DNA of 44,453 nt from an uncultured Candidatus Saccharibacteria bacterium (GTDB taxonomy: Bacteria > Patescibacteriota > Minisyncoccia > UBA6257 > JACOXY01), in contig CAYHMC010000010.1 in NCBI GenBank assembly GCA_964357615.1, forward strand, positions 1 through 44,453. Reading direction: 5' to 3'. The notes beneath the pieces were generated by a model that did not search any database, had not been told where the DNA came from, and saw only the letters and a program-made list of their open reading frames with translations. The position numbers and the translations under genes were made by a program. Each line of letters starts with the position of its first letter. The first letter of the stretch is position 1. Shown here piece after piece: positions 31,927-34,257 of this stretch.

Positions 31927-34257
31927 ATGAATATTCGCAATTGGAAATATCATAAAAAAATTACAAAACTTATGAACGATTTTCCTTCTCTTCCTAAAAT
32001 AGTATCTCTAATAACTTTTGTAATGCTAGTTTTGATTGTGAGCTCTATTTATATTGATAAGCAGAATAGTTTAATTACTGCGATTATTACTCCTACAAGT
32101 CCAAAACCAGCGCGTCTTGATTTTGAAACAGGCCTTCCTATAGCACCGGTTATGGATTCCAGGGTTCCAAAATACTGTGCGAATGTTACAGTGGCTGGAA
32201 CCAATAATCTCTTGCCAAGGAGTGGTAACATGAACTTCCAATTTAAGGGAACAGATGATTGTCGTGACCTTAACTCATATGTCTATTACAAAATAGCAAA
32301 TGCCAATATATTAATAAATGAAAATACAAATCTATCATATAAAATATCTCCTAGAAGCACATGGGGACAAAATGTTGGAATAGATTTATATCTTACAGAT
32401 GCAAGTGGAAATAACGGCAGATATCTTAGAGACCAACAAGTATATGCTAAAGATGCCGTATTAATGCATCCCAATGTTCAACAAAACCACGCAAGTTTTT
32501 CCGGTTGTTGTATATTAGGGCATCAAATTTTCCCAACAATAGAAGCCAATCTAGGCAAACTTACAGGATGGTACATAAAAGAAATTTTAGTAGCTTATGA
32601 CGATAACATATACAATAACTCCCAAGGAAATTTTGAAGCCTATGTAGATGACATAAAGATAGAGGACGTTATTCCGAGAGGGGGAAGTTATCCTTTGGGA
32701 GCCATAGTTGTATCAAGTTCAACTAAAGCAACTTCGACAAGATATTTATATTCTGGCCCAGGAGGATCTATTGTGGGCACTATTAATCGTGATGGCGCTA
32801 GTACAACGGTAGGAAAAATAGTAGATGGACCAATAGCCGTTCCGGCTTTCAAAAATACATCAGGCCAAGATGTTCCGCGTTCTAATGTAATGTGGCAAAT
32901 AGATTTTGACTCTGGCTCCGATGGATGGATAAGAGAATTATATCTTAGACAGCAATATGCAACACAAGCGCAAGCGGCTACTGCTTTGGCTGCCATAGAT
33001 GATTATTGCCTGAATGTTAAAAAAGGGGACACCGATTGCAATGGTTCAGTTGGTGTTTCAGATGGAGTCGCAGTGCTTAGGTGTAATGCTGGATTATCTC
33101 CATGCAATACCATCAATATAGATCCTGATGCCATTAAAAAAGCAGATATGGATTGCAACGGATCTCTAAGTCTTACAGACGGAGTAAATGTACTTAGGGC
33201 CGCCGCTGGACTTGCTCCGACAGAAGACATTTTAGCTTGCTCCTCGCCTCAATCGGGATTTGGATCGGGTACCACAGGTGGAAAAGGAAGGACCATTATT
33301 CATGTTTCTAACTTGAATTCTAGCGGGCCCGGAAGTTTAGCTGATGCAATTTCTACAAGCAATAGGAACATTGTTTTTGATCTAGGTGGGACTATAACTT
33401 TAACAAATTACATAGATGTTAAGGGTTCATTTATAACAATAGATGGCGCATCAGCCCCATTTCCTGGAATTACTTTGAGAAATGGAGGACTTAGAATTAG
33501 AGGAGATTTGGGTGCGCACGATGTAGTTGTAAATAATATCCGTGTCAGAAATGCATTTGAAGATGGAATTCAAGTTGCAGCCGGAGCAACTAACATAGTA
33601 ATTGATCATGTGTCAGTTGATGGCTCTAAAGATGGAAATATTGATATTACGCAAACAGGAACCAAAGACGTAACGGTTATGGGTAGTATACTTAGTCACC
33701 CAGCTCCTGATGAAAAAAATATGCTCATTTCCTATAATGCATCTAGAATTTCTTTACACCATAATATTTTTACGGAGGCTCTCCAAAGAAATCCTCAAAT
33801 AAAATTTAATGATACAACAAATACTGAAGATCCAAATACAACCGTTGATATGCGAAATAATTTAATTTGGAATTGGTTTGGAGGAGTGGGTACGCGTATT
33901 AGGAATGGCGCTAAGGCAAATGTAGTAAATAATTATTATGCTTCAAATGGAGGAGATGCGCAGGATGTTTTAATTATATGTAAAACAGGAGGTTTTAGAT
34001 TTGATAGTGAACACTGTGATAGTGGATCATCAAATACAGTTGCCAAGGCTTTTGTGTCTGGAAATCGTGATGATGGTGTTGGTGTAAATGGAAGAGGCAC
34101 CGAAGGAGCTCAGTTTACTGCGCCAACTATCGTACCATCGCTAAGCCCACAGAGTTCTGCCTGTATTGCATACAATCAAGCTGGCGTGCGTCCACTTGAT
34201 AGCGTAGATCAAGCCTATAGGTCAAGAATTTCAATTCCAGGGTGTGCTCCTAAATAA
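31927..34257 (+). CDS. Secreted or anchored multidomain protein: N-terminal TM or signal, CBM-like region, two dockerin-like Ca-binding repeats, and a pectate-lyase-type right-handed beta-helix
   Basis: Dockerin-like DTDCNGSVGVSDGVAVLR / DMDCNGSLSLTDGVNVLR. Pectate-lyase-like NLNSSGPGSLADAI ... IVFDLGGTITL ... NIVIDHVSV ... DGNIDIT. Confidence 0.65.
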   Translation: MNIRNWKYHKKITKLMNDFPSLPKIVSLITFVMLVLIVSSIYIDKQNSLITAIITPTSPKPARLDFETGLPIAPVMDSRVPKYCANVTVAGTNNLLPRSGNMNFQFKGTDDCRDLNSYVYYKIANANILINENTNLSYKISPRSTWGQNVGIDLYLTDASGNNGRYLRDQQVYAKDAVLMHPNVQQNHASFSGCCILGHQIFPTIEANLGKLTGWYIKEILVAYDDNIYNNSQGNFEAYVDDIKIEDVIPRGGSYPLGAIVVSSSTKATSTRYLYSGPGGSIVGTINRDGASTTVGKIVDGPIAVPAFKNTSGQDVPRSNVMWQIDFDSGSDGWIRELYLRQQYATQAQAATALAAIDDYCLNVKKGDTDCNGSVGVSDGVAVLRCNAGLSPCNTINIDPDAIKKADMDCNGSLSLTDGVNVLRAAAGLAPTEDILACSSPQSGFGSGTTGGKGRTIIHVSNLNSSGPGSLADAISTSNRNIVFDLGGTITLTNYIDVKGSFITIDGASAPFPGITLRNGGLRIRGDLGAHDVVVNNIRVRNAFEDGIQVAAGATNIVIDHVSVDGSKDGNIDITQTGTKDVTVMGSILSHPAPDEKNMLISYNASRISLHHNIFTEALQRNPQIKFNDTTNTEDPNTTVDMRNNLIWNWFGGVGTRIRNGAKANVVNNYYASNGGDAQDVLIICKTGGFRFDSEHCDSGSSNTVAKAFVSGNRDDGVGVNGRGTEGAQFTAPTIVPSLSPQSSACIAYNQAGVRPLDSVDQAYRSRISIPGCAPK

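Follow-up and report, generated by a model that had tools for sequence, protein, structure and literature searches.

Little is known about how ultra-small, metabolically poor bacteria of the CPR gain hold of other cells and feed on them, which makes their surface enzymes prime candidates. The window analyzed here—the whole stretch of 44,453 nucleotides—raises this question in the form of a single reading frame that combines a lyase-like domain with dockerin-like repeats: is an enzyme displayed on the cell surface, by what means, and against which polymer? The ORF occupies positions 31927..34257 of the + strand, is complete, and encodes 776 amino acids; the first-pass annotation had described its product as a secreted, dockerin-bearing, pectate-lyase-like enzyme, and the exact frame as well as every feature listed there were recovered. 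Two contigs from the 0.1 µm filter fraction of Hainich groundwater encode an identical 776-aa protein. This origin, together with a ribosomal gene order in the window in which L15 directly follows S5 and the uL30 gene between them is missing, argues for a CPR-like host, and the source is probably an ultra-small groundwater bacterium of the Patescibacteria/CPR. In our judgment, and with a probability of about 0.75, the product is a type-II membrane-tethered PL1 ectoenzyme that bears a multi-domain presentation cassette and cleaves polyuronate by β-elimination. A single N-terminal helix would hold the protein in the cytoplasmic membrane in an N-in/C-out orientation, followed on the outside by a CBM-like β-sandwich, an SH3b-like domain, a dockerin-type double Ca2+ module, and a PL1 parallel β-helix.

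The genes next to the lyase gene are a vault-like gene, a GIY-YIG gene, and a PP2C gene, and the glycosyltransferase genes GT4 and GT2 are located 6–8 kb downstream. The identity proposed earlier for the upstream neighbor (29203-31797) as vault-like is borne out by matches to MVP_shoulder (1.6e-21) and Vault_3 (3e-13). Between this gene and the lyase gene, an intrinsic-terminator-like hairpin (GCGGCGCAA-ACTA-TTGCGCTGC) with a T-tract extends over 31820..31851 of the + strand; the hairpin proper, rated strong, spans 31820-31841, and its 9-pair stem, which contains 6 GC pairs, is followed by the T-run. The terminator suggests that the lyase gene constitutes its own transcription unit. Moreover, no vault gene is on record in five related loci carrying cassette homologues. 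On these two grounds a functional link between the lyase and the vault-like gene was rejected, and their adjacency looks incidental. Recent horizontal transfer of the lyase gene or of its PL part was likewise discarded since its GC3 (0.24), in a comparison that is valid for + strand genes only, is similar to that of the + strand neighbors (PP2C, 0.21; GT4, 0.22).

The N-terminus of the protein matches the anchor or signal proposed by the first-pass annotation. A basic tail (aa 1-24; 31927..31998, + strand), predicted to be cytoplasmic and containing K7, H9, K10, K11, K14, and K24, precedes the hydrophobic segment IVSLITFVMLVLIVSSIYI (aa 25-43; 31999..32055, + strand), which is the top hydrophobic window and the sole strongly hydrophobic 19-mer of the protein (Kyte-Doolittle mean 2.68) and forms a helix in the model. 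This transmembrane segment is predicted to act as a signal anchor and may be cleaved as a signal peptide; there is no cysteine within aa 25-43 and hence no lipobox. By the positive-inside rule, an N-in/C-out topology is predicted. An extracytoplasmic location of the remaining polypeptide is further suggested by the single hydrophobic helix behind the basic tail, by the 14 cysteines of the protein, and by its closest PL homologues, which start with short hydrophobic, signal-peptide-like N-termini.

The first extracytoplasmic part, domain A (aa ~61-250; 32107..32676, + strand), is modeled with high confidence (pLDDT ~95) as a β-sandwich of the CBM type, in agreement with the CBM-like region that had been read from the sequence. 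It matches many CBMs and the CBM-like domain of the Neobacillus novalis GH92 α-1,2-mannosidase (7nsn), the sole sequence-level relative of domain A with a structure, and is not assigned to a CAZy CBM family; scans of the whole protein and of its sub-segments gave no match to Pfam CBM families. The authors of the 7nsn structure assigned no CBM family to this domain and found no ligand (PMC10167667), so that carbohydrate binding is unproven for 7nsn and the lyase protein alike. In NnGH92, as opposed to the lyase protein, a CBM32 interrupts the CBM-like domain, which is packed against the GH92 catalytic domain (PMC10167667). Domain B (aa ~255-345; 32689..32961, + strand; pLDDT ~90) is a small, bacterial-SH3-like β domain with a W323-QIDFDSGSDGWI motif, corresponding to the C-terminal 'W.v.f..g.dGWv' motif typical of bacterial SH3 (SH3b/GW) cell-wall-targeting domains. 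The lyase protein contains a single copy of it, whereas the domain B profile region matches 3-6 tandem repeats in other proteins. These repeats coincide with Pfam SH3_3/GW matches, with SH3_3 (PF08239) found over domain B-like repeats of P0153 (42.7 bits), P0063, P0112, P0119, and P0104; for domain B of the lyase protein itself, no direct Pfam match, including SH3_3, was obtained. The four domain calls of the first-pass annotation were right, and what had been missed is the SH3b-like domain, which separates the CBM-like from the dockerin-like part. Through domains A and B, the enzyme would be retained at a glycan or cell-wall surface.

The third part is a duplicated Ca-binding (F-hand) module of the dockerin type in which six cysteines are conserved (aa 361-438; 33007..33240, + strand). 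Its two predicted Ca loops, DTDCNGSVGVSD (D368-T-D-C371-N-G-S-V-G-V-S-D379, aa 368-379; 33028..33063, + strand) and DMDCNGSLSLTD (D407-M-D-C410-N-G-S-L-S-L-T-D418, aa 407-418; 33145..33180, + strand), are the repeats previously noticed as having a cysteine at the usual glycine position, and in both the cysteine indeed occupies position 4, where dockerins usually carry glycine. The loop starts are 39 residues apart, which fits the dockerin layout of a 22-residue repeat plus linker, and each loop is followed by a helix (aa 378-387 and 416-426) in a model of low confidence (pLDDT 30-66 over the dockerin region). When the window is translated in all six frames over its full 44 kb, the pattern D.[DN].[DN]G.[ILV]...[DE] is matched only twice, both times in the lyase ORF. 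Because the protein's own segment yields only weak matches to the EF-hand family (E ~0.01), the dockerin call is carried by the orthologous segments of family members: five out of nine match Pfam Dockerin_1 (best E 1.4e-7), the segment of P0002 reaching 24.2 bits (PF00404; gathering threshold, 22.9), and the two top matches of the family profile in the PDB are R. flavefaciens dockerins (5m2s and 5m2o, E 0.01-0.1). Like these cellulosomal type I dockerins (R. flavefaciens group I), the module is composed of two loop-helix repeats of ~22 residues with a Ca loop of the form D-x-D/N-x-N/D-G...D and a hydrophobic 'DxxxxLR..aGL' helix behind it, and the cysteine at loop position 4 is shared by R. 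flavefaciens dockerins ('GDANCDG'). The module departs from the cellulosomal type in being internal, in belonging to a self-anchored protein, in its six conserved cysteines, and in an own segment that remains below the Pfam threshold. A reading of the D-x-D-C-N-G loops as thrombospondin-type-3 repeats was dismissed, given the amphipathic helix after each loop and the fact that family members match Dockerin_1 and not TSP_3. Three disulfides probably staple the module, as judged solely from the covariation of its Cys pattern across the cassette family, and the pairs expected are C361-C371, C386-C393, and C410-C438; if they form, the cassette represents a dockerin variant that is rich in disulfides and occurs in organisms other than cellulosome producers.

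The dockerin-type repeats had been taken to imply assembly onto a cohesin scaffold, or at least Ca-dependent docking between proteins. In a cellulosome-like arrangement, a cohesin carried by a second surface protein would receive the module, or the module would recruit a cohesin-bearing partner, so that several enzymes are gathered in one complex at the surface of the episymbiont. At the family level the dockerin homology is real, the module is strictly conserved in all nine cassette proteins irrespective of their cargo, and ~4 kb downstream of the gene for the P0003 homologue there is a further small ORF whose DLNGDGYVNKND loop is canonical, along with a protein that matches Dockerin_1 weakly. 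However, a scan of 35 proteins of the window gave no match to Cohesin (PF00963), nor is one on record for the genes of the five related loci, and the lyase ORF contains the only dockerin-like motif of the 44 kb window. Outside cellulosome producers, moreover, it is reportedly common for dockerin-like modules to occur without cohesins. Since the lyase protein has its own membrane anchor, an assembly of this kind is unsupported, and the internal rather than terminal position of the module also speaks against it; we regard it as distinctly unlikely. Within this architecture, the dockerin-like module more probably serves as a spacer rigidified by Ca2+, or for interaction, than as a plug of the cellulosomal kind.

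The C-terminal part of the tethered ectoenzyme (aa ~443-776; 33253..34254, + strand) is a PL1 parallel β-helix lyase domain with a C-terminal helical cap, as had been suspected from its PL-type β-helix. A search of the whole protein against Pfam gave no match at E<=1, including PF00544 and Dockerin_1, and sub-segment scans retrieved weak EF-hand or Beta_helix matches only. The assignment follows from matches to NCBIfam PelZ (1.5e-19, 70 bits), to VexL (4.8e-11), PfPL1 (1.2e-10), and TmPelA (3.8e-5) in phmmer searches of the PDB, and from the AlphaFold model (pLDDT ~90 for aa 450-680), for which Foldseek ranks 1-12 in the PDB are taken up entirely by pectate/pectin lyases of the PL1 fold and by VexL, a pectate-lyase homologue that is structurally closest to PL1 enzymes (best, 9buj at 3.6e-13). 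The PelZ score falls far short of the 840 that serves as equivalog cut-off, so that the substrate cannot be transferred from PelZ; by these comparisons the protein is a member of the PL1 clade and not a PelZ equivalog. With the PL domain alone as query, 428 homologues were retrieved, with identities reaching 56% across 97% of the domain. They include hundreds of secreted proteins of ~370 aa; several homologues bear the name pectate lyase or 'polysaccharide lyase family 1 protein', and PF00544 is present in some. Homologues annotated as PL1/pectate lyase are included at 45-56% identity. Compared with any characterized PL1 enzyme, identity is ~20-30%, as opposed to 50-56% within this uncharacterized environmental 'pectate lyase' clade. 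The lyase domain nevertheless shares with PfPL1 (9buj, PL1 subfamily 2), VexL (6fi2), Thermotoga PelA (3zsc), and Dickeya PelZ the parallel β-helix fold, and with PL1 lyases an R-x-P catalytic arginine, a conserved lysine, three acidic residues, and the helical cap.

The predicted catalytic set comprises D546, D569, D573, K597, R621-N-P623, and K626. In an alignment of 121 sequences, D546, D569, R621, and P623 show no variation (121/121), and D573 is retained in 120/121 and K597 in 112/121; K626, at +5 from R621, is not conserved in the clade. R621 is aligned with R232 of VexL, which was proven by mutation to be the catalytic base (PMC6003464), and the DGNID motif equals the DGxxD motif of TmPelA. 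At +3 from R621, where VexL carries the essential R235, a glutamine is found. Residues were mapped by VexL numbering (R232/R235), which matches exactly; the 'Arg220/Arg235' given for PfPL1 (PMC11229556) could not be matched to the chain index. Most likely, the domain would β-eliminate an α-1,4-linked polyuronate, either pectate-like or an acidic capsule/EPS polymer. In this reaction, R621 would act as the base that removes the C5 proton, with D546, D569, and D573 as ligands of a carboxylate-neutralizing Ca2+ and with K597 and K626 in assisting roles. A Ca dependence of the protein is suggested by these residues; it is uncertain because the closest solved relatives, VexL and PfPL1, are reported to be metal-independent in catalysis.

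Retention of these residues also bears on whether the β-helix is kept merely as a binding or structural stalk, making the protein a non-catalytic surface adhesin. β-Helices are frequent as adhesin scaffolds, the cassette contributes two binding-type domains, and the motifs 'AGQTAP' and 'W..DE', which more distant PL1 relatives conserve, read 'DGASAP' and 'G..DG' here. Yet all invariant or near-invariant PL1 catalytic and Ca signature residues of the 121-sequence clade are present and the whole domain is 50-56% identical to its best-matching homologues, several annotated as pectate lyases, which renders loss of catalysis very improbable. The protein is probably a real, active surface lyase with a new domain architecture.

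The neighborhood and the relatives of the PL domain provide arguments as to whether the lyase would act on the cell's own polymer. VexL is among its two closest solved relatives, and the lyase could, like VexL and AlgL, trim or control an acidic exopolysaccharide or capsule of the producing cell instead of a host or environmental polymer; the downstream GT4 and GT2 genes and the importance of EPS genes for epibiotic growth of Southlakia (PMC10633639) are in line with this possibility. The gene is, however, found outside any polysaccharide-synthesis or export locus, with the vault-like, GIY-YIG, and PP2C genes as neighbors, and sibling proteins carry proteases on the same cassette. Furthermore, its nearest sequence relatives are typical of catabolic enzymes, being stand-alone, signal-peptide-like PL1 proteins or combining PL1 with PKD, CARDB, or F5/8-C. 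Processing of a self-made polymer is therefore considered unlikely. As to the substrate and biological target of the ectoenzyme, we infer a polymer of the host envelope or the biofilm matrix or a dissolved one, and degradation of a host surface or matrix is plausible. If the target is a host capsule or biofilm polymer, the enzyme would point to a route by which such bacteria reach the host wall.

The predicted catalytic domain is otherwise an ordinary CAZyme in a large, already annotated clade; what sets the protein apart from its PL1 relatives is the fusion behind a 440-aa membrane-anchored cassette. The dockerin loop is present in 0/120 of the closest PL1 homologues. The N-terminal cassette is rare, with at least nine protein clusters, mostly from groundwater, and a search against GTDB genomes returned only one short, irrelevant SH3-like match. 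Domain A, domain B, and the dockerin-like pair are common to nine clusters at 41-50% identity, and the dockerin-like module is strictly kept in each of them. The C-terminal cargo varies: PL1 occurs only here, FG-GAP plus a matrixin-like protease in four, and no cargo is assigned in the others. As judged by sequence, the transmembrane helix, domains A and B, and the dockerin-like pair constitute a conserved 'presentation cassette' with swapped C-terminal enzymes. The protein thus offers a concrete example of a predicted, apparently active polyuronate lyase that is membrane-tethered via a conserved four-part cassette and whose cassette is reused in relatives with protease-type cargo. More speculatively, the cassette could be a lineage-specific 'display and docking' platform in ultra-small bacteria of groundwater that directs interchangeable degradative warheads onto the host envelope, its dockerin-like pair docking in a Ca2+-dependent manner to a non-canonical partner. 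We hold this to be quite improbable; if true, it would represent a minimal episymbiont counterpart of the cohesin-dockerin system, serving host attack rather than plant-fiber digestion.

That such a protein is unexpected in an episymbiont-type genome, as initially stated, turned out to be overstated: PL families have been reported in 80/135 CPR MAGs (PMC10031880), and the essential proteins of the saccharibacterium Southlakia include one of the envelope with a dockerin domain (PMC10633639). The essential dockerin-, VCBS-, and FN3-domain envelope proteins of Southlakia epibionticum, proposed to target host-cell glycans (PMC10633639), are likewise CPR surface proteins with glycan-binding or -degrading domains. 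They differ from the lyase protein in phylogenetic group and habitat, and the likeness considered here is one of domain type; it extends to the FG-GAP/VCBS-type repeats of the sibling cassette proteins, which are comparable to the VCBS proteins of Southlakia. In addition, the unclassified 'CBM-like' domain, of which a single structure (7nsn) has been solved, gains many homologues through the cassette.

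The open reading frame at 31927–34257 (+), placed exactly by the first-pass annotation, encodes a protein of 776 aa that is best explained as a predicted membrane-tethered ectoenzyme. It harbors five parts: an N-terminal anchor, a CBM-like domain A, a bacterial-SH3-like (SH3b-like) domain B, a dockerin-like module, and a polysaccharide lyase family 1 (PL1) domain. All of these except domain B, which was overlooked, had already been recognized in the earlier annotation. The identical protein is found on two further Hainich groundwater contigs, with the same neighbours on both; one belongs to an ENA assembly of H41 well water (0.1 µm filter fraction) and one to the Logan assembly of run ERR3858121. 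Recent import of the gene is ruled out by its third-position GC (0.21–0.24), which matches that of neighbouring genes on the + strand. The proposed anchor corresponds to aa 25–43, the sole strongly hydrophobic segment, which follows a Lys/His-rich tail and contains no lipobox. By the positive-inside rule, this segment is predicted to be a signal anchor that leaves most of the protein outside the cell.

The PL1 domain (aa ~443–776, pLDDT ~90) matches PelZ of NCBIfam (1.5e-19) and, among PDB sequences, VexL (4.8e-11), PfPL1 (1.2e-10), and TmPelA (3.8e-5); Foldseek ranks 1–12 are without exception PL1-fold enzymes, which bears out the claim of a PL-type beta-helix. A query with this domain alone retrieves 428 homologues, with identities of up to 56% over 97% of the domain length. 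The majority are ~370 aa long and start with a signal-peptide-like segment. Several are annotated as pectate lyase or "polysaccharide lyase family 1 protein", and PF00544 is present in some of them. As a catalytic domain it is unremarkable, belonging to a large PL1 clade that is already annotated. In a 121-sequence alignment, no variation is seen at D546, D569, R621, or P623, D573 is conserved in 120 and K597 in 112 sequences, and the protein retains all six residues; the alternative of a non-catalytic adhesin is less well supported. The DGxxD motif, which contributes to the Ca site in Ca-dependent PL1 enzymes, is matched in its Thermotoga PelA form by D569-G-N-I-D573. R621 aligns with R232 of VexL, the catalytic base according to mutagenesis (PMC6003464). 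The domain would cut an alpha-1,4-polyuronate through beta-elimination, with R621 as the base and a Ca site formed by D546, D569, and D573 with the help of K597 and K626. Ca dependence is uncertain since catalysis by VexL and PfPL1, the closest solved relatives, is described as metal-independent. Candidate targets are a host capsule, a biofilm matrix, or a dissolved pectin-like polymer; processing of the cell's own EPS is a less supported reading.

The CBM-like and SH3b-like domains would place this ectoenzyme on a glycan or cell-wall surface. Domain A (aa ~61–250) is modelled by AlphaFold with a pLDDT of ~95 from a 43-sequence alignment, and its family profile matches residues 250–407 of 7nsn (E 4.7e-40). 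According to its authors, this counterpart contains Ca, cannot be placed in any CBM family, and lacks a known ligand (PMC10167667), so that "CBM-like" is correct as a statement on the modelled fold while carbohydrate binding is putative. On its own, domain A is widespread in unrelated multi-domain proteins, often as tandem copies, its partners including GH5 and PA14, metallopeptidases, or Big_2 and a T9SS tail. Domain B (aa ~255–345, pLDDT ~90) bears the motif W-x-I-D-F-D-S-G-x-D-G-W-I. Its profile region matches 3–6 tandem repeats in other proteins, which coincide with Pfam SH3_3/GW matches.

The dockerin-like module (aa 361–438) comprises two Ca loops of 12 residues, D368-TDCNGSVGVS-D379 and D407-MDCNGSLSLT-D418, and a "DGV.VLR..AGL" helix comes after each of them; in a six-frame translation of the whole window, such loops occur at these two sites only. 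The segment itself yields only weak EF-hand matches. The orthologous segment of the homologue P0002 exceeds the Pfam Dockerin_1 threshold (24.2 vs 22.9 bits), and five of nine family members match Dockerin_1 (best 1.4e-7), in keeping with the proposal of two dockerin-like Ca repeats with Cys at the usual Gly position. This substitution has precedent, since the two best-scoring PDB entries for the family profile, both dockerins from Ruminococcus flavefaciens, also read "GDANCDG". Six Cys are conserved around the loops, and the only two members without the loop-1 Cys, P0002 and P0015, likewise lack the upstream Cys. Conservation and joint loss suggest disulfides C361-C371, C386-C393, and C410-C438; structure models are of low confidence across the module. 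The pair may act as a Ca-stabilized, disulfide-stapled spacer or interaction module. Cohesin-mediated assembly, which the first-pass annotation had raised on account of the dockerins, is less supported: no Cohesin-domain match was obtained in 35 window proteins scanned, and none is on record in the five related loci. The genome of another homologue, P0003, encodes more than a single dockerin-like protein: ~4 kb downstream of the P0003 gene (12544–13239 of that locus), a short product gives a weak Dockerin_1 match, and the neighbouring ORF has a canonical DLNGDGYVNKND loop.

When 1.84 billion representative proteins were searched with a profile built on domains A and B, 312 matches were obtained, with both domains together in only nine clusters. 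In all nine, the same Cys-rich dockerin-like pair follows, and these cassettes are 41–50% identical to that of the lyase. What comes after the cassette varies: P0002, P0014, and P0017 continue with FG-GAP repeats and have a matrixin-like C-terminus, the latter also being present in P0016; the domains in P0003 and P0015 are unknown; and PL1 occurs in the window protein alone. Matrixin (Peptidase_M10) exceeds the Pfam threshold in P0016 and P0017 only, the matches in P0002 and P0014 being weak and below it. Since, in addition, the 120 closest PL1 homologues all lack a dockerin-type loop, the protein is a lineage-restricted presentation cassette fused to a common PL1 domain. Dockerin-bearing pectate lyases are well known from cellulosomal bacteria. 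PL families are reported from 80 of 135 CPR MAGs (PMC10031880), and one envelope protein that is essential to a cultivated saccharibacterium has a dockerin domain (PMC10633639). The architecture of N-terminal anchor, unclassified CBM-like domain, SH3b-like domain, and internal Cys-rich dockerin pair appears undescribed; together these parts form a conserved cassette whose enzymatic cargo is exchangeable.

Upstream, the neighbour described as vault-like indeed matches vault/MVP families: 29203–31797 (+) encodes an 864-aa major-vault-protein-like product (MVP_shoulder 1.6e-21, Vault_3 3e-13) on a bacterial, CPR-like contig. A strong terminator hairpin (31820–31841; 9 bp, GC-rich, T-tract) separates it from the lyase gene, and neither a vault gene nor a shared neighbourhood is on record in the five related loci, all of which harbor homologues of the cassette. 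Downstream, a 77-aa GIY-YIG-domain-only gene (34266–34499, +) starts 8 nt past the lyase stop codon and is followed by a PP2C phosphatase gene (34560–35312). The window resembles a Patescibacteria/CPR genome, as we infer from a GC content of about 35% and from the gene for ribosomal protein S5, after which that for L15 comes next at a distance of 8 bp (6920–7905, +), without uL30 between them. A SAM (S-box) riboswitch (16882–16982, +; 62 bits) lies directly 5′ of a 164-aa ORF (17027–17521) without a Pfam match. Just downstream of the tRNA at 18005–18076, ~1 kb of 55–62% GC (18400–19400) has no Rfam match and resembles a small insertion of foreign DNA next to the tRNA. It holds two plausible ORFs without Pfam matches, 18454–18828 (+; 124 aa, one TM helix) and 18854–19378 (+; 174 aa, lipoprotein-like "LFAAC" start). 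A cytochrome P450 gene (27064–28308, −; PF00067, 1.3e-27) is unusual for a reduced episymbiont-type genome, and a copper/metal-handling cluster at 20281–25658 (+) encodes an HMA-domain P-type ATPase, DUF305, a DsbD_2 protein with an HMA domain, and a cupredoxin-like protein.
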